DNA from: an uncultured Candidatus Saccharibacteria bacterium
GTDB taxonomy: Bacteria; Patescibacteriota; Dojkabacteria; SC72
Length of the DNA: 64,000 nucleotides
Direction: 5' to 3'
Assembly: GCA_964514595.1 (NCBI GenBank)
Contig: CAZEQZ010000002.1
Coordinates: forward strand, 29,812-93,811
The notes under the pieces: model-generated
What the model was told of the DNA's origin: nothing
Seen by the model: only the letters and a program-made list of their open reading frames with translations
Database searches by the model: none
Shown: positions 11,107 to 53,502 of the stretch, piece after piece
Numbering within the stretch: the first letter of the stretch is position 1
Layout: every line of letters starts with the position of its first letter
Translations under genes and position numbers: made by a program

Positions 11107-11127
11107 TATCCATATAGAACGCAAAAA

Positions 11128-11374
11128 GCAGGATGCCGGACCTACACCGGAACTTCAACATCACCAATTTGCAAGCAAAGTAGAGATGCCTCACAACCCG
11201 AAGGAAGTGAAAAGAAGGAAGGTTCTAATAACCAACAACATCCTGCATAAGCAAGGCGCTGGACCTACACCAGAATACCGAAAACATCGCAATCCTGCGA
11301 ACAGAAAAGAGATGCCCTACAACCCGAAGGAAGTAGAAAACGGAAGATGGTTCTAATAACCAACAACACCTTGC
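11128..11374. repeat. two tandem ~120-nt GC-enriched elements (candidate structured sRNA pair), each closed by a terminal helix
   Basis: Unit A is 11128–11246 and unit B is 11251–11374. They share ggacctacacc, agagatgcc-tacaacccgaaggaagt and ggttctaataaccaacaaca. Unit A is closed by GCAGGATG/CATCCTGC and unit B by GCAAGG/CCTTGC, so the closing helix changed compensatorily. They lie between the convergent 3' ends of carD and ileS. Confidence 0.4.
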
Positions 11375-11468
11375 ATATCATGAGTAAAAACTCAAGTTTT
11401 AAAGAGCGTAGCAAGACTTTAGTAAAAATTTGGCAAGATGTCAATAGCCACAACCGAGCTTATAGTAA

Positions 11469-17650: not shown

Positions 17651-17724
17651 TGGTTGCCGGACCTAGATTCGAACTAGGATTAACGGTTTCAGAGACCGTC
17701 GTCCTACCATTAGACGATCCGGCA
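17651..17724 (-). tRNA. tRNA-Gln (anticodon CUG), CCA encoded
   Basis: Minus-strand sequence TGCCGGA-TC-GTCT-AATGGTA-GGAC-G-ACGGT-CTCTGAA-ACCGT-TAAT-CCTAG-TTCGAAT-CTAGG-TCCGGCA-A-CCA. It folds as a cloverleaf with a 7-nt anticodon loop CTCTGAA. Confidence 0.8.
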
Positions 17725-29234: not shown

Positions 29235-29718
29235 TAAGGTGATTAAGAAAAAAACTAAAAAGCTCACTAATGATTTTAAACAGTTTGCTTTTAAAGAGGC
29301 CACACTAGGTGCTGCAGTGGGTATTATGTTAGGTGCTGCATTTAGGGATGTAATAAATTCTTTGGTTAATGATGTCCTTACACCTCCTATTGCATATATT
29401 ACATCTGGTATAGATTTCACTTCTCTATATTTCACATTTGGTTCTACTAAGTATGAGAGTATTGAATTAGCAAGGGAAGCAGGTGCAGTGATTATTCATT
29501 ACGGAAATTTTATTAGTGAGTTCATTACATTTCTAATTACCGCTTTTATTCTATTTCTTTTAGCATATCAAGGTGGAAAGATAGTTAATAGATTAAACAA
29601 AAAAGAAGCGGAAAGGAAGAAAAGTAAAGAGAAGAAGTGTCCGTTTTGTAAATCGAAGATACATGAGGAGGCTACTAGATGTCCGTTTTGTACGAGTAGG
29701 TTAGAAAATGGACGATGA
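29224..29718 (+). CDS. mscL: large-conductance mechanosensitive channel MscL with a C-terminal Cys4 zinc-ribbon extension
   Basis: FKQFAFKEATLGAAVGIMLGAAFRDVINSLVNDVLTPP plus a second TM match MscL. The C-terminus carries CPFCKSKIHEEATRCPFC. Confidence 0.85.
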   Translation: MVDNKVIKKKTKKLTNDFKQFAFKEATLGAAVGIMLGAAFRDVINSLVNDVLTPPIAYITSGIDFTSLYFTFGSTKYESIELAREAGAVIIHYGNFISEFITFLITAFILFLLAYQGGKIVNRLNKKEAERKKSKEKKCPFCKSKIHEEATRCPFCTSRLENGR

Positions 29719-29782
29719 TGGATTTGAACCAACGACCCCTACAATGTGAATGTAGTGCTCTAACCAGCTGAGCTAATCGTCC
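29709..29782 (-). tRNA. tRNA-Val (anticodon CAC), no encoded CCA
   Basis: GGACGAT-TA-GCTC-AGCTGGTTA-GAGC-A-CTACA-TTCACAT-TGTAG-GGGTC-GTTGG-TTCAAAT-CCATC-ATCGTCC-A. There is one U·U mismatch in the T-stem. Its 3' end overlaps the last 10 nt of mscL. Confidence 0.75.
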
Positions 29783-29803
29783 ATAGAAACAATTATATCA
29801 CGA

Positions 29804-30107: not shown

Positions 30108-33100
30108 TTAAGATTTTTTCACCTTTATCCTCTCTGCAAGAATGTAGTTATCTTTTCTCACATCAATGAAAGTCCCCCTCTTGATATCAACTAACTCCCA
30201 ACCTTTCTCCGCAATATCAAGCTCATATTTACCTTTGTCTAATATAAATCTATATTTACCTTTACTGTTTGTTACTCTTTTAGCTATTACCTTATTGAAT
30301 TCCTTTTCTCGTATAGTTATAGATATGTTAGATAGTGGCTTACCCTTCTCATCTACAACTTTTCCATATTTACCTTTCTTATTAAAGAAAGAGTTTATTA
30401 AAATATATAACGGGATTATATACAGAAGAAGAAATATTAGATTATTACTATTCCTGTGTGTGTAGTATGTGTACGAGGATATGGTCACTCCCACAATAAA
30501 TATGAAGACATTGAGTATTGATAGTGCTTTAACTAATATATTCTTGATTCTGTGAAATACCATTTGACCACCTAGAATCTCTTTAGGATCTATAGGAACA
30601 GCAATTTGTATATCCGTATCTTCTGACGATATATCTAGGCTACCAGTATATACATTCTGTAATGGATAATCATGTGGACCCTTTACATATATACTTGGGT
30701 ATTCATATCCAGACTTAGATACTTTTAACAAATACTTTCCCTTTCCTAAGCTAGCAGAGAATCTCCCATTGATATCTGTAACAGCTGTATCCACCAACCT
30801 ATCCTTAGTATTAAATACTCTAACTAATGCCATATGGACAGGTTCTTTAGTATTAGAATCATATACAAACCCGTAATTAACCCTCTTCTTTCTAAAGCCT
30901 AAGGAACTCAAAATTAACATCATAAATTGCGATACCATATATCCCAACTGTGTTAACCCACCAAAGAGAGCTGTAGCTCCTACCGTTACAGTTACTACAT
31001 TTGCTGTTGTGGAAATAGTCCGAAGCTCCCTCTCTTCAAGATTGGTCACAACATCTGTATTTATCAATATGCCTAAAGTATTATCCTTTATAAAGTTTGT
31101 AATTTTCTGAATAGTTGATTGCTTTGGAACAGCCTTCTCTGATTTCGACTCCTCTTTTTTCTCCTCCACGACAGGTTTATCTACTTTAGTATCTTTCGGT
31201 TCTTCATAGTAGAATCCTAGTCCTCCTGTACCTCTTAACCCATCAGCAACCCAATAATTTATTCCACCTATTACTACCTTAGACACCGTAACTGATGACT
31301 CCCCTACATTCTTTTTACTCGGAAACTCCCCTGTAAATTGTACTGCTCCCGAACACTTCTCCTTTACTTCCTCTAACTGAGAGGCACCTGGGCAAAGCAG
31401 AAACGCATTCGTATCATCTGCATTAACATACATTGTGAACGGATTAGAGACACCATGATTCTCTTGAAGCTTTATTACTGTCTTCCTCTCTTCTGGAGCA
31501 CTTAGTATTATAGCGTCCTGCCAATCCCTATCCTGATTAAATAAAACAGGAATATCCGCTACTAGGAGATCCCCTTTCTTTATCCTAACATTCCTTTCCC
31601 CGAATTGAGCATTATTACGTACTGTTAAATCTATATTCTCTTGAGTAGCCAGGGTAGCACGAAGTGTACTGTCAATATTTCTCAATATAGCCCCTGTACC
31701 GATGAAGATTGGATCACTCCAACCAGTTTGTACTAGAGATTTATTTCTAGCCTTAACTGAAAACCCATACTGAACTCCTGTCTCCAATCCATTTACTATT
31801 ACTCCATTAGCAGATCCAAAATTAGAGAAAGTTCCCCATTTTTCCTGAACAGTTAATGTCCCTAATTCAAAATCTAAATACCTACCACTATTGTTTTCTC
31901 TAATTAATAACTCTGTATCTGCTGGATTATCTAAAGTATTAATATATACCCTAGCACTATCACTTGACACAGCATTCACCCTAACCATGGATGGGCTCTG
32001 AGCGAAGGTATATATTGATTGATTCGTTGACCAGGTTGTAGCAACATTCTTTTTATTTAAACTTCTTACTTTAAATTCGTACTCAGTATTAGGAAGCAAT
32101 CCATCAATATCGATACTGGAAGAAAATGGAGTAATGGAGGAGGAAGTCATTAATATTTTCAGATCATTATTGTAATATCTATTACTCTTATTCTCCACTA
32201 TCTGTAGGCTATCCCTACTACTTCCAGATATTGCTAATCTAACAGAGGATGCTCCTGTTGCAGTTACTGAGGATATCCTAGAAGGTTCTGAGTGCGTAGA
32301 GAAAAGAAATGTATTTGAATAATCACTTTCAGATATATTACTGTACACTTTCACCTTCCTAGCATATTCTGTATTAGAGGAGAGATTTCCCTCTATACAC
32401 TGGTTCATACTATTAACAGAGCAGGTGATCAACAGATTGTTATTGGAATCATAGATCTTATATCCTACCTTAGAAGCATTGCTATCCGTTACTCTCCAAG
32501 TAAATGAACTGGCTGTTGTTGTGAGAGCTGAGAGTAGTGTCGGAGGATATAGTTTAGTTGCAACTGTAACTGATTGAGAAAATTCACTTTCTATATCCGC
32601 TTCATTTCTAGATTTAACTTTGAATCTGTATTCCGTACCTACTTCCAACCCAACAACTTCCTTTCCATTCTCCGACCCGAACTGAGTATATGTTCCCCAT
32701 ACCTCCTCATCTACCAAAGCTCCTGTAGAGATATCTACATACTTGTTCGTACTTTCTTCCATAATTGCATATTGTGTACCTACAGGGTTATTATCCTGAC
32801 TTAAAGCAACAGTTATACTGTTTATAGTTCGTGCAATTAATACTGGTACATTTGGTATATCTGATTTAGTATATGTCCCTATATACTCACTAAAGGTAGT
32901 TTCTATACCATTATAGTTTCTAGATTTCACCCTGAAGAAATAAAGGGTATTAGGTTCTAAATTAGTTACTGCTGTACTTTCTGATTGAGTCCATACGGAA
33001 ATTCCCTCATTACAATCTAATTCCTCACATTCAAAAAATACGCCTGAATTACCGTCATTTATATTATTTACCCCCTCTGCTGTTAAAGAGACTGAAGAAG

Positions 33101-35534
33101 ATGAAAGAGGAGACAAAGATATGGATGGAACTTCTGCCAAAGTATATATTGTTATACTCTCAGAATATTCGGTTTCAACACCATCTCCATTTCTGCCCTT
33201 CACTCTGAAAGTATATGCGGTATTAAAATCCAAATTAGTTACCTCATCACTACTGGTAGATATCCATTCATTAATACCTGTGTCACATCCTGTATTCTCA
33301 CAATCAAAATATATTTCCGACCCATTTATCTGACCGAGGGCAGACAGATTTATCGTTGAAACAGTTTTCTCTCCTCCTTCTAGTATTGTTGGTGGCGAGA
33401 GTAGTGTATACACATATGCAAGTTCAGAAGGGGCACTTTCTCCTGAGGAATTGTATGCAGTAATTTTTCTAGAATATTGAGTATTCTCATCAAGACCAGT
33501 CTCATCACAATATGTTAAGTCCTCTCCAAGGCAGTATTTAATTAAATTGTCTTCTTCATCATACAGAGCAAATCCTTCTTCATTGTTAGCATTATCTGAG
33601 AAGTGCCATCTGATGACAGAGGTTGACAAAGCTTCAGGTGTCCCCATTGTTGGGACTTCAGGAGCCGTAGAATAAGTTAGAGATACACCTTCTAATACAG
33701 GAGTGTCTTGTCCACTATTAGTATCAAAAGATATTTTGTAATAAAACTCAGAAGTTTGTAGATCTAATTCTTCCAGAATGATCTCTACATTTTCACCAAG
33801 GATTAGCTCATCATCACCATCTTCTATTCCAGAGGAATCAAACCACATTAAAGAATCCGTACTAAATTGAATAGAAGCTGAAGTCCCCACAGGTTTAGAA
33901 GATAGAGTATAAGAGAAGGACTGTATAAAAACATTATTTTCTTCCGAAATCAAATCAGACGATTGCAAAGTCATTGAGTTGGCGTATGCAGGGCTCACTT
34001 GTGAACTTGCGACAGGGGTGGAATTACCATTAAAAGAAGTCGTGTATTCTATACGAACCCTACCATCACCTCCGGCAACTCCTCGTGTAGATGGAACACC
34101 AGCAGATGCAGTAGTAGAAGACTCACTTAAACTTATTTGCCCTCCTACTATCTTAATAGCACCACCTGCGCCGGTTCCTCCCCCAGAACCCTTGGATTCA
34201 GGTTCCGCAGTAATGTTTCCTCCATTACTTTTTATTGAGCCCAACACATTTATATCAGTCCCCAAAATAAATATTATTCCTCCTCCACGACTCCCACTCG
34301 TACCATCATAATAAGATCCCGATAACCCTTGACCTGCACCACCTCCACCTCCACCTCCTCCGAAATTAAGCCTAGACAAATCAGCTTCTCCCGCGCTTTT
34401 ACCACCACCCCCTCCTCCAGCCGAGTATCTCTTATCTCCGTAATGCAAAGCCCCCGCTCCCCCGGCTCCACTGGCCGAAGATGTTCCCCCATCCCCAGAG
34501 GTCACCCTACTATATCCCCCCACTCCTGGGGTTCCATAACCACCGCCCCCTCCTCCTCCACCTAAACCATCACAGTCATTTGTTGTACATTTTGTATTTG
34601 TAGAACCACCACCCCCTCCTCCAACTGATCCGTAATCATTACTTCCAGCTCCTCCTGCCCTGTTAGATCCTCCGCCACCACCACCACTCCAACTTCCTGC
34701 ATACCCTACTGCACCAGTAGCTCCTCCCTTCCCATCGTTTCCAGATACTGGGAAATATCCTTCTCCAGGAGTAGTATTACATGCTCCTACAGCACACTTA
34801 TTTCCTCCTCTATATCCCAAAGCAGAAACATCTATATTTCCGTTTACATTAACTACCCCAGAAGCTTCAAACGAGAAAACTCCTCCTTTTGTACCATCCC
34901 ATGCATCAGGATACCAATTTACCCCAGCATTAACTGTTACATCACTATACTGGGGAATTCTCTGAACCATTATTTTTTGTGTAGTACCATTGTATCCATT
35001 TGTCAGATTCCTATCTAAAGAGAGAATTTCGCCTACTACATTCTCTACGTATGCAGTTTCATACTGTCCGACATTTGAATGATCTGCTTGTGTACCTTGT
35101 AAGTTTATTATCAATATTTCATCCCCTATCGACAACCCCGTAGCTACAGAAGATAGGGTTATGCTATCACTCCCAGCCACCACATTTTCTGTTACAGAGA
35201 AATTAACTGCATCTCCATCCACTCTCCCAACACAGCTCCCAGTATTAATGTTTGTATTTACAGAAACAGTACAAATTCCATCATTCCCTGTTCCAAAACT
35301 AACTTTACTAACTTTAACAGTTCCCTCCCCAATATCATAATTAGATGAATTGACCTGATCTATTAAATCTAATGTGCTGAAATCCTCTACTACGGTATGT
35401 GCAACACTTTGTATGGTTCTTGCAAGATATAAATAAACAGCTATAGGTAAAAATGTGATTACTGTAAATACTGAAAGAATAACTATAAACCTCCTCCAAT
35501 TAAAATTCCCTAAGAGTGTTTTCTTTTTCTTCAT
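30108..35534 (-). CDS. giant (1808 aa) cell-surface protein: signal anchor, Gly-rich beta region, about 8 FN3-like repeats, then TM helices interleaved with two CarboxypepD_reg-like domains
   Basis: N-terminal TM. Poly-Gly runs at aa ~230–560 (GGGGGGS, GLGGGGGGGGYGTPG). Repeated ~90-aa FN3-like units (e.g. ...YFDCENTGCDTGINEWISTSSDEVTNLDFNTAYTFRVKGRNGDGVETEYSESITIYTLAEVP). Hydrophobic helices at aa ~1480–1520 and ~1660–1720. Two transthyretin-like segments (GFVYDSNTKEPVHMALVRVF...; GKVVDEKGKPLSNISITIRE...). Confidence 0.7.
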   Translation of the reverse strand: MKKKKTLLGNFNWRRFIVILSVFTVITFLPIAVYLYLARTIQSVAHTVVEDFSTLDLIDQVNSSNYDIGEGTVKVSKVSFGTGNDGICTVSVNTNINTGSCVGRVDGDAVNFSVTENVVAGSDSITLSSVATGLSIGDEILIINLQGTQADHSNVGQYETAYVENVVGEILSLDRNLTNGYNGTTQKIMVQRIPQYSDVTVNAGVNWYPDAWDGTKGGVFSFEASGVVNVNGNIDVSALGYRGGNKCAVGACNTTPGEGYFPVSGNDGKGGATGAVGYAGSWSGGGGGGSNRAGGAGSNDYGSVGGGGGGSTNTKCTTNDCDGLGGGGGGGGYGTPGVGGYSRVTSGDGGTSSASGAGGAGALHYGDKRYSAGGGGGGKSAGEADLSRLNFGGGGGGGGAGQGLSGSYYDGTSGSRGGGIIFILGTDINVLGSIKSNGGNITAEPESKGSGGGTGAGGAIKIVGGQISLSESSTTASAGVPSTRGVAGGDGRVRIEYTTSFNGNSTPVASSQVSPAYANSMTLQSSDLISEENNVFIQSFSYTLSSKPVGTSASIQFSTDSLMWFDSSGIEDGDDELILGENVEIILEELDLQTSEFYYKISFDTNSGQDTPVLEGVSLTYSTAPEVPTMGTPEALSTSVIRWHFSDNANNEEGFALYDEEDNLIKYCLGEDLTYCDETGLDENTQYSRKITAYNSSGESAPSELAYVYTLLSPPTILEGGEKTVSTINLSALGQINGSEIYFDCENTGCDTGINEWISTSSDEVTNLDFNTAYTFRVKGRNGDGVETEYSESITIYTLAEVPSISLSPLSSSSVSLTAEGVNNINDGNSGVFFECEELDCNEGISVWTQSESTAVTNLEPNTLYFFRVKSRNYNGIETTFSEYIGTYTKSDIPNVPVLIARTINSITVALSQDNNPVGTQYAIMEESTNKYVDISTGALVDEEVWGTYTQFGSENGKEVVGLEVGTEYRFKVKSRNEADIESEFSQSVTVATKLYPPTLLSALTTTASSFTWRVTDSNASKVGYKIYDSNNNLLITCSVNSMNQCIEGNLSSNTEYARKVKVYSNISESDYSNTFLFSTHSEPSRISSVTATGASSVRLAISGSSRDSLQIVENKSNRYYNNDLKILMTSSSITPFSSSIDIDGLLPNTEYEFKVRSLNKKNVATTWSTNQSIYTFAQSPSMVRVNAVSSDSARVYINTLDNPADTELLIRENNSGRYLDFELGTLTVQEKWGTFSNFGSANGVIVNGLETGVQYGFSVKARNKSLVQTGWSDPIFIGTGAILRNIDSTLRATLATQENIDLTVRNNAQFGERNVRIKKGDLLVADIPVLFNQDRDWQDAIILSAPEERKTVIKLQENHGVSNPFTMYVNADDTNAFLLCPGASQLEEVKEKCSGAVQFTGEFPSKKNVGESSVTVSKVVIGGINYWVADGLRGTGGLGFYYEEPKDTKVDKPVVEEKKEESKSEKAVPKQSTIQKITNFIKDNTLGILINTDVVTNLEERELRTISTTANVVTVTVGATALFGGLTQLGYMVSQFMMLILSSLGFRKKRVNYGFVYDSNTKEPVHMALVRVFNTKDRLVDTAVTDINGRFSASLGKGKYLLKVSKSGYEYPSIYVKGPHDYPLQNVYTGSLDISSEDTDIQIAVPIDPKEILGGQMVFHRIKNILVKALSILNVFIFIVGVTISSYTYYTHRNSNNLIFLLLYIIPLYILINSFFNKKGKYGKVVDEKGKPLSNISITIREKEFNKVIAKRVTNSKGKYRFILDKGKYELDIAEKGWELVDIKRGTFIDVRKDNYILAERIKVKKS

Positions 35535-36316: not shown

Positions 36317-36393
36317 TGGTGGGCGACACAGGATTCGAACCTGTGACCCTCTCGGTGTAAACGAGATGCTCTGACCAGCTGAGCTAGTCGCCC
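36317..36393 (-). tRNA. tRNA-Val (anticodon UAC), CCA encoded
   Basis: GGGCGAC-TA-GCTC-AGCTGGTCA-GAGC-A-TCTCG-TTTACAC-CGAGA-GGGTC-ACAGG-TTCGAAT-CCTGT-GTCGCCC-A-CCA. Perfect cloverleaf. Confidence 0.9.
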
Positions 36394-36400
36394 ATATATA

Positions 36401-36487
36401 TGCCGAGGACAGGAGTTGAACCTGCACGAGAGTATAAGTCTCACTACCACCTCAAGGTAGCGTGTCTGCCAATTCCACCACCTCGGC
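36401..36487 (-). tRNA. tRNA-Leu (anticodon GAG), type II with a long variable arm
   Basis: GCCGAGG ... CTACC-TTGAGGT-GGTAG, a long variable arm, T arm GCAGG-TTCAACT-CCTGT, acceptor 3' strand CCTCGGC, discriminator A. Confidence 0.85.
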
Positions 36488-36539
36488 ACATTATACAGTG
36501 ATTATTCTAACAAATTAAGCCTTTTTATCCAATACTTAA

Positions 36540-38969: not shown

Positions 38970-39047
38970 CAAAGGGAATAGGCGAGCGTGGAATAGATAA
39001 AAATCTTTTAGACTTCTGAAGTCTAATTATTCCACACTCACCGTTAG

Positions 39048-39121
39048 CGCTCCTGAAAGGATTCGAACCTCTATACAGTCATTCAAAGGCTGACTGGCTT
39101 TTCCATTTAAGCTACAGGAGC
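39048..39121 (-). tRNA. tRNA with an atypical 9-nt anticodon loop (GCCUUUGAA); identity unresolved (Gln-UUG or Lys-UUU), possible pseudo-tRNA
   Basis: GCTCCTG-TA-GCTT-AAATGGAA-AAGC-C-AGTCA-GCCTTTGAA-TGACT-GTAT-AGAGG-TTCGAAT-CCTTT-CAGGAGC-G. All other arms are canonical, including the T-loop TTCGAAT. Discriminator is G73. No CCA. Confidence 0.55.
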
Positions 39122-42695: not shown

Positions 42696-42772
42696 GGAGT
42701 GGTAGCTCAATTGGTTAGAGCATCTGCCTGTCACGCAGAAGGCTGCGGGTTCGAGTCCCGTCCATTCCGCCA
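42696..42772 (+). tRNA. tRNA-Asp (anticodon GUC), CCA encoded
   Basis: GGAGTGG-TA-GCTC-AATTGGTTA-GAGC-A-TCTGC-CTGTCAC-GCAGA-AGGCT-GCGGG-TTCGAGT-CCCGT-CCATTCC-G-CCA. Confidence 0.9.
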
Positions 42773-49832: not shown

Positions 49833-50762
49833 TTATAAATCCACATACCCCCTTAAAAACCCCTCATGCATCTCTATCCTTCCCCTATTAAATTCATTCA
49901 ATTCTTCAGAATAATAAGCTAAATACTCTATTATTCTAGATACCCAATACAATTCATCTAACTCCTTCTCTTCCTTTGTATAACTCATAAGAGAGTAATA
50001 CTCATCTACTACCTTATCCCCCAAATCAAAATGCCATATTAACATCCTAATTCTTGAAAAATCATATATAGGATCACCGAACATAGACTCTCCCCAATCT
50101 ATAATACCTGCAATATTATTTGTTTTTGGATTTACAAATAAATTTCTTTGATTATAGTCGGTATGTAATAGACAATAATTATCTTCCCTTATACCTACCT
50201 TTAAAAACTTAGAAATATACATATCTACACTCTTAAGTATCAGATCTTTATCTAAACCCTTCCTTTTACTAATCTCATCCCATTTAAGATATTCATCAGT
50301 ACTATCAAACTTAGAAAGATGAAATTCTTTCCAATTTCTTCTTTCATCATTATTTGTAATATACCCCACCCTATCCGAACCTATACTATGAATAACCCTT
50401 AATGATTCTATCATCGATGGTATGTATAGAGGAATCTCTTCTTTGGCTACAGACTCTAATAACGGGAATTGTATCTTCTCCATTACGAGCACAGGGATAT
50501 CATCTATTGATGCTTTTAAATATACTTTAGGAATTGGAATATTAAGATTATTTTTCTTAATTAGATCATATGCTCTTATATCCATTTCTACTCCTTCCCC
50601 TATCTTTACGACATATTCCTTATTATTTTCATCAAGAAAGGATACTATTTCACTATCCATACCCTTGGGAGATTCTGTAATCTTGGTAATTGAAATATTT
50701 AATTCTTTGGTAATTTTGTTAAGAATATTGTCAAAATTATTCCTAGTTTTGTCCATATTCAA
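49833..50762 (-). CDS. aminoglycoside-phosphotransferase-fold (APH/choline-kinase-like) kinase
   Basis: Catalytic LLHTDYNQRNLFV (HxDxxxxN) and IDWGESMFGDPIYD (DxG...D). Confidence 0.75.
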   Translation of the reverse strand: MNMDKTRNNFDNILNKITKELNISITKITESPKGMDSEIVSFLDENNKEYVVKIGEGVEMDIRAYDLIKKNNLNIPIPKVYLKASIDDIPVLVMEKIQFPLLESVAKEEIPLYIPSMIESLRVIHSIGSDRVGYITNNDERRNWKEFHLSKFDSTDEYLKWDEISKRKGLDKDLILKSVDMYISKFLKVGIREDNYCLLHTDYNQRNLFVNPKTNNIAGIIDWGESMFGDPIYDFSRIRMLIWHFDLGDKVVDEYYSLMSYTKEEKELDELYWVSRIIEYLAYYSEELNEFNRGRIEMHEGFLRGYVDL

Positions 50763-50792
50763 TAACTATATCACATTGTATAATACTACTAT

Positions 50793-50897
50793 ACAGGAGG
50801 GTTGAGAGTTGGTAGAACCTCTCCATGCAAGCCAATACTACCCTGTTGATCAGGATGTGGCGTTTAGTGTGATTTCGGTGCAAGTCCGACCTCCTGT
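50793..50897 (+). ncRNA. candidate structured RNA, 105 nt, with tRNA-like modules (possibly Y-RNA-like or tRNA-like)
   Basis: Terminal 8-bp helix ACAGGAGG/CCTCCTGT. Canonical D-arm-like GAGAG-TTGGTAGAAC-CTCTC containing the consensus D-loop AGTTGGTAGA. T-arm-like TCGG-TGCAAGT-CCGA next to the 3' strand of the terminal helix. About 50 nt lie between them with no standard anticodon arm. Confidence 0.35.
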
Positions 50898-50909: not shown

Positions 50910-51302
50910 ATGAACTACAATCAAATTAACAAACAAAACCTACCTAAATGGGAAAATACTCTTAAATATATTACTGAGGTATTAAATAAGAATGATATTA
51001 AATACTATCTATCCTCCTCTGGATTACACTACATACTAGGTCAAGAAGTATACCCATATGATATAGATCTATTTATGTCTAAGGAGGATGTAAGAAGGGT
51101 ATACAAATTACTAACTAAGTACAAAGTATCTAACCTACACTATTGGGAAGAAGATTGTACTAAGTTATTAGAATTTCAAGGTACATACAATGACATACCC
51201 TTTGAAATATGTGAGTGGGAGAAAGAACCAGAGGAATTAAAGGAGGTGGAGTATAAGGATATCGAAGTTTATGCCTCCCCTATTAAATCTTCTATAGCAT
51301 AA
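50910..51302 (+). CDS. minimal nucleotidyltransferase-fold protein
   Basis: SSSGLHYILGQEVYPYDIDLF fits the Pol-beta NTase G[SG]-x9-13-D-x-D motif. 130 aa. Confidence 0.5.
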   Translation: MNYNQINKQNLPKWENTLKYITEVLNKNDIKYYLSSSGLHYILGQEVYPYDIDLFMSKEDVRRVYKLLTKYKVSNLHYWEEDCTKLLEFQGTYNDIPFEICEWEKEPEELKEVEYKDIEVYASPIKSSIA

Positions 51303-52267
51303 ATGATTTCGTTTACATCACTTCCATAGATTCTGTAAACCCCTTTATCATAAAGATTATAAATTAGATTCCTACGATTATTTCTTGTTATAGAATCATC
51401 CAAAGATGGTGTATGCGAAAGAAGATACCCAGAATCAGACATCACATGTGTAGCGACTCCTGAAATATGACGTGCTAACTTCTCTCCCAAGAATAAATTT
51501 GTCTTAATATCTTTTGGAGTAATTCTCTCTAAATGAATTTTCTCTCTACCTGTTGGATCTATATGTATTATGAAGGTGGAGTTAAGCTCAGAAATACCTT
51601 CTGATTTTCTTATACCCAGCTCCAAAGGATCTATCTTTATTTTATTCTCCCAACTACTACTTCCATTGTCAGGGAAATTCTCTCTCGATAAGGGGAGATG
51701 CCCAGAGAGAACAGCCGATTCTCTAACCATTAAATATTTCGTACCTCCAAATAAGAACACCTTATCTTCTTCAAGTAAAGGCCTCTCTAAAATAACCTGG
51801 TCATTCCCTATTAAAGAGTATCCCCTTAACCCAAGATTGACTGCTATAGTTGTCTTCCCAGCTCCTTGATTCCCCAAGAACAAAATTCCTTTCCCGCTTG
51901 GAGTCTCAACGGCAGATCCATGTGTTAAGGCTCCCCCCGCAAGTTGCCTCTCTCGTTCTGTTAGACATAGTGCTAAATGCAAAAGTGCTCTTCCTTGACT
52001 TATCTCCTCCTTTGGACAAGCTAGAATAAAACATGTCTTCTCTGGATTAACCTCCAAAGCTACTTCCTCTTGCTCTAAATGAATAACTGAATATTTAGAC
52101 TCATTGTCCTCCTCTTCATAAAAACTACAACTGGGGATACCACAATCATCATTAAATTCCTTGTCGAAATCTGCATATATATTAACTTTTCTCCCAGCAA
52201 CTTCTAGACCTTTCCAAAAAGGAACTCCTATCAATTCTTTTTCATTTATTTCTGAAGCCTCTATCAT
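51269..52267 (-). CDS. HPr-kinase C-terminal-domain-like P-loop kinase (HprK-related)
   Basis: HGSAVETPSGKGILFLGNQGAGKTTIAVNLGLRGYSLIGNDQVIL matches the HprK/P C-domain motif H-x-S/G-x-V-x(5)-G-x-L-x-x-G-x-S-G-x-GKS ... L-x-x-DD/ND-x-V. It is the last gene of the minus-strand operon. Confidence 0.65.
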   Translation of the reverse strand: MIEASEINEKELIGVPFWKGLEVAGRKVNIYADFDKEFNDDCGIPSCSFYEEEDNESKYSVIHLEQEEVALEVNPEKTCFILACPKEEISQGRALLHLALCLTERERQLAGGALTHGSAVETPSGKGILFLGNQGAGKTTIAVNLGLRGYSLIGNDQVILERPLLEEDKVFLFGGTKYLMVRESAVLSGHLPLSRENFPDNGSSSWENKIKIDPLELGIRKSEGISELNSTFIIHIDPTGREKIHLERITPKDIKTNLFLGEKLARHISGVATHVMSDSGYLLSHTPSLDDSITRNNRRNLIYNLYDKGVYRIYGSDVNEIIYAIEDLIGEA

Positions 52268-53502
52268 TACTCTTCTGCCTTGATATTATATACGGAAGGA
52301 AGAAGAACCTCTTCCTTTAGAATCTTCTGCGTCCAATCTCTTTTGGCCAGTATTCCTTTAATTAAACTTTCTAATTCCTTAGAGTTTATCTCTTTAGAAG
52401 AAAATACTGTTATCTCATGGGGAGAGAAAAATGGGTCTCCATTTCTGGTCATTACAAGAACTTCAACTTTACAATCAAAGTGCTCCGCTATTTCTCTTGC
52501 CATTTCATCAACTATTACTCCATAAACCTTACCAACATGATATACAGGATTCTTTCCCCAGGCAGCTTCCATTGAATATTTCCTCATCATAGGAATTATT
52601 CCTCTCCTATTGTTTCCCCTACCTACACATCCTTCTTCTCCAAAATCTGTGGCTGACCCTCCAGCTACAAGATAAGCTTTCTTGGCTGTGGTAATACCTT
52701 TCGCAAGTTGATCCTGGGTATTAATATGCAGTTCATATTCTAATTTCATATCTTTAAACCTTTTTTGGATATGGTCCTTTATTACCTGAACGATGTATTT
52801 TTTCTTCTCTTTATACTCTAAAGAATCCTTAATATCCTGCGCGAAGAAAGGAATACACATCGTTATACTATACTTATTATCTCTCCTAATAGTCATAACC
52901 TTTATGTCCTGCCCAATAAAAGAATATTTAGGATTCTTTTCTTCATCATAAAACAATCCTTCCAACTCTAGTGTCAGGCTCTCTGCAAAGGTTAAAGGCC
53001 AACAACCAACTACAGCAGATGTGTCATTAGCAAATATGTTTTTGTACTCTGGAAGATCCTCTACTGACTTAGGATTAAACCATCTGGGATTGCGAGAATA
53101 TTGCTTTGTTTCATTCATTATTATTAACCAATTTTCAGTATCAAATCTAGGCATAACTTTGTTAAGATAGGTTTTAACTGCGTCCTCAATGATTGACTGT
53201 ATGGGAATTTTTTTCCCATCAAAGGATCCACTCATCCTCCCGTTAACAAGAACCCTTACGGGCTCTGTGAATTTACCTTTTCCCCAATCAAATTCAGATA
53301 ACCCTCCCATAATACAAACTTTATCTACGTTATGATGTAGTACATACCCGAAATTATCCAAACAGTATTTTGAATAATCTATAGATATTCTTTCCGCTAA
53401 ACCGTCCGCTAACGTATCTGGATGTCCCCAACCCTTCCTCTCAACAATTTCTATATCATTGTCATCTGGGAATATATGCTTTGTTGTTTGATGTATATTC
53501 AT
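52267..53502 (-). CDS. S-adenosylmethionine synthetase, archaeal type (MAT; PF01941 family)
   Basis: IEIVERKGWGHPDTLADGLAE, ILHHN-like VLHHNVDKV, ANDTSAVVG, GQDIKVM, LHINTQD and GGSATDFGEEGCVGRGNNRRGIIPMMRKYSMEAAWGKNPVYHVGKVY are collinear with archaeal MAT (e.g. [20 protein letters not shown] ... MGDDGSVGRGNRVNGLITP...SGKNPVNHVGKIY). Confidence 0.85.
   Translation of the reverse strand: MNIHQTTKHIFPDDNDIEIVERKGWGHPDTLADGLAERISIDYSKYCLDNFGYVLHHNVDKVCIMGGLSEFDWGKGKFTEPVRVLVNGRMSGSFDGKKIPIQSIIEDAVKTYLNKVMPRFDTENWLIIMNETKQYSRNPRWFNPKSVEDLPEYKNIFANDTSAVVGCWPLTFAESLTLELEGLFYDEEKNPKYSFIGQDIKVMTIRRDNKYSITMCIPFFAQDIKDSLEYKEKKKYIVQVIKDHIQKRFKDMKLEYELHINTQDQLAKGITTAKKAYLVAGGSATDFGEEGCVGRGNNRRGIIPMMRKYSMEAAWGKNPVYHVGKVYGVIVDEMAREIAEHFDCKVEVLVMTRNGDPFFSPHEITVFSSKEINSKELESLIKGILAKRDWTQKILKEEVLLPSVYNIKAEE

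Follow-up and report, generated by a model that had tools for sequence, protein, structure and literature searches.

Candidate family of small tRNA-shaped RNAs without an anticodon loop in Patescibacteria-type bacteria

A stretch of 64,000 nucleotides (nt) from an uncultured Candidatus Saccharibacteria bacterium (assembly GCA_964514595.1, contig CAZEQZ010000002.1), referred to as the window, harbors an intergenic element of 105 nt at positions 50793–50897 of the plus strand (+), which had been noted in an initial annotation as a tRNA-like structure. The element very probably belongs to a real family of structured RNAs, and it is likely that this family represents a stand-alone, non-decoding mimic of tRNA. 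The explanation preferred here, to which we assign a probability of about 0.5, includes a tRNA-like maturation: the element would belong to a small family of genes for tRNA-shaped RNAs that stand alone and do not decode, in bacteria of the candidate phyla radiation (CPR)/Patescibacteria type. This explanation is supported by a TATAAT promoter of its own, by orthologs in unrelated gene contexts, by reciprocal matches between the covariance models of two types of copies, and by an invariant division of the acceptor/T branch into 8 and 4 base pairs (8/4). The family has not been described before, lies outside Rfam and has so far been seen only in CPR/Saccharibacteria-type bacteria; no description of such RNAs was found in the literature on tRNA-like RNAs in Saccharibacteria, Patescibacteria or CPR.

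Fold and conservation of the element

The minimum-free-energy (MFE) structure of the element is a cloverleaf-like four-way junction of four helical arms, P1 to P4, which follow each other along the sequence in the order ACAGGAGG-GUU-GAGAG-UUGGUAGAAC-CUCUC-(48 nt)-AUU-UCGG-UGCAAGU-CCGA-CCUCCUGU. The acceptor-like helix P1 comprises 8 bp between the strands ACAGGAGG (50793–50800) and CCTCCTGT (50890–50897). It encloses a D-arm-like hairpin P2 (50804–50823, GAGAG-TTGGTAGAAC-CTCTC) with a 5-bp stem and the loop UUGGUAGAAC, and a T-arm-like hairpin P4 (50875–50889, TCGG-TGCAAGT-CCGA) with a 4-bp stem and the loop UGCAAGU, which directly adjoins the 3' strand of P1. The 48 nt between both hairpins fold into a long central arm P3 (50824–50871), situated at the position of the anticodon arm and devoid of an anticodon loop. 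The terminal helix and the two hairpins had already been recognized in the initial annotation, together with a spacer of about 50 nt that precludes a canonical tRNA fold, and both descriptions are borne out by the MFE structure. P1 is followed by a single unpaired, discriminator-like A (50898), and no CCA is encoded. Upstream, a TATAAT –10 box (50779–50784) is located 8 nt before the first helix base; in the window this hexamer occurs with a frequency of 0.0008 per position. The G+C content of the element amounts to 50%, compared with 29–33% in its flanks and 34% in the window, and the tRNA genes of the window behave alike.

Orthologs were searched with a pattern composed of the two loops, TTGGTAGAAC-N45-70-GGTGCAAGTCC, which retrieved three true relatives: two in Candidatus Saccharibacteria metagenome-assembled genomes (L017, 1990–2095, and L019, 225–330) and one on an activated-sludge contig (L020, 1301–1417). 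Two Burkholderiales loci (L016 and L018) and a further metagenome locus (L021) were discarded as chance matches to the pattern or ordinary tRNA. The four copies, designated type 1, reside in unrelated surroundings. The window copy sits between an APH-fold kinase and a putative nucleotidyltransferase (NTase), the copies in L017 and L019 come after a sigma-70 gene, which in L017 is followed beyond the RNA by a KilA-N regulator, and the copy in L020 is found among RNase HII, YtxH, Fic and tRNA genes. The TATAAT box is invariant in all of them, at a distance of 6 nt in the three orthologs and of 8 nt in the window.

Imposed on the four type-1 copies, which represent three lineages, the proposed structure is 93% paired, with seven pairs in which both bases have changed. 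Not one of 500 shuffled controls attained this, and structures slid by 1–3 columns reached 36–45%. Four of the covarying pairs are placed in P1, one in P2 (stem pair 2, A-U in the window copy and U-A in L020) and one at the base of P3 (pair 32–79, which is C-G, U-A or A-U). In contrast to these stems, the loops of P2 and P4 are unchanged in all type-1 copies. P3 has a conserved proximal internal loop (AUGC-RAG / GGYGUUUAG-CAU); its apical part diverges in L020, where it is longer by 11 nt. The presence of G-U pairs (U34-G77, G35-U76 and others) identifies the plus strand as the RNA strand. The window copy, with its loops unchanged, is 65% identical to that of L020, whereas for tRNA-Lys(UUU) the identity between these two sequences is 54%.

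A second type of copies and the geometry of the family

A covariance model of the four type-1 copies (R1) identified two further copies in the window, which are arranged in tandem on the minus strand (–) between ileS and a convergent carD gene and constitute a second type. Paralog A (11251–11374, 124 nt) scores 31.7 bits with an E-value of 4e-6 over the window and is followed by an unpaired U at 11250. Paralog B (11128–11246, 119 nt; 26.9 bits) begins 4 nt after paralog A and is followed by an unpaired U at 11127 and by a U-run. Paralog A contains the helices GCAAGGUG/CGCCUUGC and CUGG-UGUAGGU-CCAG. Upstream of the pair, the promoter-like sequence TTGACA-17-TAAAGT (11416–11444, –; 10 of 12 matches in the scan) is kept in the related locus L150 as TTGACA-17-TACAGT, and its position implies a leader of about 35 nt which would have to be removed.

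Between A and B, eight compensatory double changes are distributed over P1, P3, two inner hairpins and P4, and the L150 copy of B adds another one, from A-U to G-C. A second model built from paralogs A and B only (R2) in turn recovers every type-1 copy with exact ends and 19–34 bits, whereas true tRNAs score only about 12–15 bits with either model. These reciprocal matches show that both types are related and suggest that both are somewhat tRNA-like. No Rfam family was found at the paralog locus either. Between L150 and the window, paralog A is 98.4% and paralog B 94.2% identical, compared with 83% for carD and 64–69% for ileS.

Common to all eight copies, which comprise six distinct sequences, is a P1 of 8 bp and a P4 of 4 bp abutting it, resulting in 8 + 4 = 12 stacked pairs, the same total as the 7 + 5 pairs of tRNA. 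Within this fixed frame both partners vary at five of the eight P1 positions when the family is compared; pair 7 takes five standard forms, while A-U is fixed at pair 3 and G-C at pair 8. Pairs 1 and 2 of the P4 stem covary between the types, and pair 4 of P2 changes from A-U in type 1 to G-C in type 2. The base after P1 is A in all four copies of type 1 and U in all four of type 2. The loops of P2 and P4 (L2 and L4) are invariant within each type and read UUGGUAGAAC and UGCAAGU in type 1, UUAUUAGAA and UGUAGGU in type 2. In both types a contact of 3 bp is possible between them (UUG/CAA and UUA/UAG, respectively), and the one covariation event at this place is suggestive of a preserved loop-loop pairing. 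Type 1 additionally displays the GG of the D loop, with G at the equivalent of U55, whereas type 2 has neither GG nor C56/A58, so that residues corresponding to the canonical elbow contacts (GG, C56 and A58) would be confined to type 1.

None of the copies possesses an anticodon-like loop, and the types differ in the central arm. In type 1, P3 is a single irregular hairpin of 48–59 nt with an apical loop of 5 nt (UUGAU or UUAAU), which can not be aligned in L020. In type 2 it is a short helix carrying two hairpins with tetraloops of the UUCG type (UUCG and CUUG). The MFE structure of type 2 lengthens P1 to 11 bp, with GUUG pairing to the 3' strand of P4 and thereby excluding the P4 hairpin; this form, impossible in type 1, could be an alternative conformation. 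A heptamer CAGGAUG is found in P3 of type 1 (50851–50858) and in P1 of paralog B (11239–11246, –), is absent in L020, and has a variant CAGGAUU in a hairpin loop of paralog A (11290–11296, –). It resembles the binding consensus of CsrA/RsmA (A/CARGGAUGU).

Terminal inverted repeats that recur in several copies and variable contexts could also belong to a feature of the DNA, either an integration site or a small mobile element with inverted repeats. The flanks of L017 and L019 part right past the 3' end of the RNA, with the phage-type KilA-N regulator located there in L017, and a contig of the same organism (L003, ena:ERZ27252300:k141_241670) begins inside the RNA gene at element position 68, which places an assembly break within the element. 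However, the ends differ among the copies of a genome, and in each copy they are complementary to each other; only one strand tolerates G-U pairs, and the promoter is conserved. Moreover, neither target-site duplications nor repeats of the element's 3' end were found, and no transposase or integrase is nearby. A DNA-level origin is for these reasons the least probable of the alternatives considered. The 3' end of the RNA may nevertheless be a variable or integration-prone site, as is the case at tRNA genes.

Further family members were detected neither in about 150 kb of other CPR loci nor by pattern scans of IMG/VR (four scans, of which one was empty and two gave chance matches only).

Comparison with tRNAs and with known tRNA mimics

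ARAGORN with default settings and Rfam at the gathering score, a check which the initial annotation had proposed, recover the six true tRNAs of the window and do not call the element. With Rfam at E ≤ 10 on a 401-nt slice there was no match, including the tRNA, tRNA-Sec, YrlA and yjdF models, and relaxed ARAGORN yields forced models only, such as a Leu(cag) with an intron. A canonical tRNA (RF00005) can be dismissed due to the 8 + 4 instead of 7 + 5 split and the lack of a 7-nt anticodon loop with U33 and a purine at position 37. The aberrant type-II or Sec-like tRNA considered in the initial annotation does not fit: the apical arm is variable and has no anticodon loop, and a bacterial tRNA-Sec would require a 13-bp branch (8/5), a UCA anticodon loop and a D-stem of 6 bp with a 4-nt loop, whereas the branch is 8/4 here and P2 has 5 bp and a 10-nt loop.

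By geometry the closest known molecules are the allo-tRNAs, bacterial RNAs from metagenomes in which the 12-bp branch is not divided 7/5 but 8/4 or 9/3 (Mukai et al. 2017, PMC5389517; PMC7609411). They have been reported from Clostridia, Proteobacteria and Acidobacteria, and some irregular 8/4 allo-tRNA-like transcripts are polycistronic and were not aminoacylated or used in E. coli (PMC5389517, PMC7609411). The 8/4 split and the bacterial host are common to both. However, the anticodon stem-loop, the long variable arm and the long D-stem with tetraloop of allo-tRNAs are missing; instead, the present family has a single long or branched central arm, a 5-bp P2 and a loop of 9–10 nt, and its hosts belong to the CPR. 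Everything between P2 and P4 is enclosed by the covarying base helix 32–36/75–79, and neither an anticodon arm nor a variable arm stands apart from it.

An irregular tRNA that still functions in decoding, either allo-tRNA-like or with an anticodon arm from which an intervening sequence is removed, would be in line with the 8/4 branch, the polycistronic 8/4 transcripts, the discriminator-like base, the promoter layout found at tRNA genes and the relaxed Leu(cag) model. It is nonetheless very improbable. There is no match at normal thresholds and no conserved 7-nt loop with U33; the sole candidate anticodon reads UGA in the window copy, is replaced by UAA in both Saccharibacteria copies and has no counterpart in L020. 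Excision of the variable part would leave a loop RAGUUUA, which lacks U33, and type 2 has tetraloops only. To our knowledge, bacteria possess no splicing system for short tRNA introns. An intron-containing archaeal tRNA was considered since the window encodes an archaeal-type S-adenosylmethionine synthetase (52267–53502, –; PF01941, E-value 3e-91), although the genome is bacterial in other respects. The element shows no bulge-helix-bulge motif, and splicing would not produce a sensible anticodon loop. The host has gltX and recJ of bacterial type, and some of its tRNA genes encode CCA; contigs of up to 0.76 Mb likewise count as evidence of a bacterium.

Bacterial Y RNAs, the first identity proposed in the initial annotation, consist of a tRNA-like module on a long irregular helix. 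YrlA RNAs are of similar size and are substrates of tRNA enzymes; their T arm comes first, the D arm last and a closed acceptor-like stem-loop between them, and both termini lie in the stem that binds Ro (Chen et al. 2014, PMC4201824). An RNA of this kind could mimic tRNA in a partnership with an Rsr/Ro60 protein whose gene lies in another part of the genome. However, YrlA is permuted with respect to tRNA, carries the GNCGAA motif for Rsr binding and adjoins rsr, and none of the three features is seen here. The arms follow each other as in tRNA (P1, D-like arm, long arm, T-like arm, P1), with the termini in the acceptor-like helix and thus in the opposite topology. The type-1 sequences contain no CGAA at all, so that the motif GNCGAAN0-1G is absent. 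Moreover, no TROVE domain was detected in the 36 window ORFs (open reading frames) scanned, nor in the scanned ORFs of L017, L019 and L020. In combination with the missing Rfam match this renders a Y RNA highly unlikely.

The RNA bears a likeness to the tRNA-like domain of transfer-messenger RNA (tmRNA), in which a mimic of the acceptor and T arms is joined to a helix without anticodon. An identity as tmRNA was rejected, since neither ARAGORN nor Rfam makes such a call, pair 3 of P1 is A-U in place of G3-U70, and there is no tag frame. Stable 'species 1/2' RNAs in the tRNA cluster of phage T4 likewise mimic the acceptor and T arms and are co-transcribed with tRNAs, with processing signals of the tRNA type. 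For the element, BLAST against phage records was empty, and a phage or viral origin was rejected. Few systems are known in which stable RNAs mimic tRNA, namely tmRNA, YrlA, yjdF and the viral tRNA-like structures.

Two further proposals were set aside. A 31-codon reading frame from TTG 50809 to TAA 50904, with AGGAGG 8 nt upstream, is disrupted in the orthologs by frame-shifting indels and stop codons. Likeness to a K-turn, to hammerhead or hairpin ribozymes and to the Alu domain of the signal recognition particle was examined by eye and dropped.

Possible maturation and the neighbouring genes

The window contains six tRNA genes (17651–17724, 29708–29783, 36317–36488, 39047–39121 and 42696–42772), of which three encode CCA and three do not. 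TATAAT precedes four of the six, excluding tRNA-Val(tac) and tRNA-Asp, at a distance of 8–13 nt (1 nt for tRNA-Leu). A box located 1–13 nt from the mature 5' end implies very short tRNA leaders. Shine-Dalgarno (SD)-like motifs are found upstream of 2 of 39 window genes, compared with 19% of random 17-mers, and judged by these sequences initiation in the host does not seem to be led by SD. All family members have an SD-like 5' strand of P1 (AGGAGG, GGAAGGUG, AAGGUG and AGGAUG). Given that the host hardly uses SD sites, AGGAGG in P1 is not considered a ribosome-binding site.

In the preferred explanation, P1 would stack on P4 to give the tRNA-like 12-bp acceptor/T branch, the loops of P2 and P4 would take the places of D and T loop, probably touching each other as an elbow, and P3 would stand in for the anticodon arm as a type-specific module. 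The RNAs would be transcribed from promoters resembling those of tRNA genes, excised from their transcripts by RNase P, RNase Z or exonucleases, and provided with CCA. RNase P, RNase Z and CCA-adding enzymes act on minihelices with such signals. A tRNA-like release and CCA tailing are suggested by the 12-bp branch, the unpaired 3' base, the promoters and the tandem copies, which are spaced by 4 nt and preceded by a leader. Maturation would separate the tandem pair and, in the window copy, free the RNA from the mRNA of the downstream NTase gene, with which it is probably co-transcribed. After the cut the leader of this mRNA would be 11 nt long, in keeping with a host that makes no use of SD. 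The tRNA-like body could then engage a tRNA-binding partner or add stability, while the conserved P3 arm may carry the specific function by protein binding or RNA pairing. Maturation along this path combined with an effector role of P3 is put forward tentatively, at somewhat below even odds.

The gene to the left of the element (49833–50756, –) encodes an APH-fold kinase (PF01636), as had been assumed from the outset; named relatives belong to Dojkabacteria, Zambryskibacteria and Parcubacteria, and on this basis the host is assigned to the CPR/Patescibacteria type. The gene to the right (50910–51302, +) has no sequence match in Pfam or the PDB. Its AlphaFold model (pLDDT, the model's confidence score, of 91) is most similar to TM1012, a minimal nucleotidyltransferase (TM-score 0.73–0.75), followed by the toxin MenT1, terminal uridylyltransferases and CCA-adding enzymes. 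This predicted structure supports the earlier label NTase at the level of the fold. The 3' end of the NTase gene overlaps by 34 nt with a convergent gene (51269–52267, –), which shows a weak match to the C-terminal part of HPr kinase.

The initial annotation had envisaged a functional link between the RNA and these nucleotide-handling enzymes, and alternatively a regulatory leader of the NTase gene. Neither is sustained by the genomic contexts. The RNA is absent from all four other contexts of NTase homologs that were inspected (56 homologs were found, which elsewhere come after NUDIX or unclassified genes), and it is absent next to kinase homologs in other contexts (57–77% identity). Conversely, no NTase homologs were found near other family members, and a search for kinase relatives among the genome contigs returned none. 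Since the RNA is missing beside NTase homologs and its orthologs and paralogs are located beside unrelated genes, the association with kinase and NTase is best regarded as an accident of the locus. This bears on the proposal in which the RNA would serve as a decoy substrate or as an RNA antitoxin for the adjacent NTase, the fold of which resembles tRNA-modifying MenT toxins. The presence of MenT1 and CCA-adding enzymes among the best matches after TM1012, the probable co-transcription, and the kinase genes flanking the pair, with the MenT1 structure 8rr5 being a phosphorylated form, fit such a role. However, in the four sampled contexts of other homologs not only the RNA but also a conserved kinase is missing, no other family member has the NTase in its vicinity, and a search of the protein against PHROGs, which did not cover the PADLOC defence library, was empty. 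The proposal is accordingly given very little weight.

More serious is the possibility of a cis-acting, tRNA-like leader, which would serve as translation enhancer, sensor or processing signal, either of the yjdF kind or as a grafted tRNA leader. The yjdF riboswitch (RF01764) forms a tRNA-shaped four-way junction, and leaders with the shape of a tRNA are able to activate translation (Trachman et al. 2022, PMC9142559). With yjdF the RNA has in common the four-way junction of P1 to P4, a length of about 100 nt, a putative elbow between L2 and L4 and the overall outline of tRNA. In the window the NTase gene, which has no promoter of its own, starts with an ATG 12 nt downstream of the RNA; ORFs on the same strand follow 141 nt downstream in L017 and 82 nt downstream in L020, and SD sites are almost never used in the genome. 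However, yjdF is a leader in cis, the T-loop of which pairs with the SD site of one gene family, whereas the present RNA has no Rfam match, no SD site downstream and a host barely using SD. The genes behind it are unrelated (NTase, KilA-N regulator and a 52-aa ORF), and their distances from it vary widely. Type 2 is upstream of no gene: copy A precedes copy B, and B precedes a U-run and the convergent carD, so that tandem and terminator-flanked copies occur. Conservation above the tRNA-Lys of the same genomes would moreover be unusual for a leader. Taken together, a cis-acting leader is unlikely, though less so than the other alternatives.

Several points weigh against a stand-alone tRNA mimic. 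Type 1 lacks a terminator, which in combination with the ATG shortly behind the window copy means that the RNA could act in cis at least there. The missing elbow contacts of type 2 imply that the mimicry of tRNA may be looser than it appears. Single-sequence folding of type 1 gives an unimpressive z-score of –1.3 to –1.85; with folding evidence as weak as this, the 8-bp inverted repeat alone would not convince. The family sample consists of three independent type-1 and two type-2 lineages, and the gene neighbourhood points to no partner protein.

If the preferred explanation is correct, these RNAs might bring to light a hitherto unrecognized partner of tRNA processing or of translation. They would constitute a further, independent case of tRNA mimicry in the poorly understood and mostly uncultured CPR bacteria, the reduced genomes of which leave little space for dispensable genes. 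The traits of such RNAs are the occurrence of several copies per genome, the fixed 8/4 branch, a type-specific central arm resembling an exchangeable module and a very strong conservation. More speculative is the generalization that CPR/Patescibacteria carry an unrecognized class of non-decoding tRNA-shaped RNAs, in which a 12-bp 8/4 branch is combined with conserved modules displayed at the position of the anticodon arm. In this reading, a sequence conservation higher than that of adjacent proteins, and than that of a tRNA compared across the same genomes, would speak for a core cellular role: the RNAs might be CCA-tailed or even aminoacylated for a non-decoding purpose, or might tether or titrate a conserved tRNA-binding factor. 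Genes of this kind are currently overlooked by tRNA finders and Rfam.

Elsewhere in the window, an ORF of 1808 aa (30108–35534, –) shows a weak match to the gliding-motility protein AgmC, which is limited to its N-terminal part.

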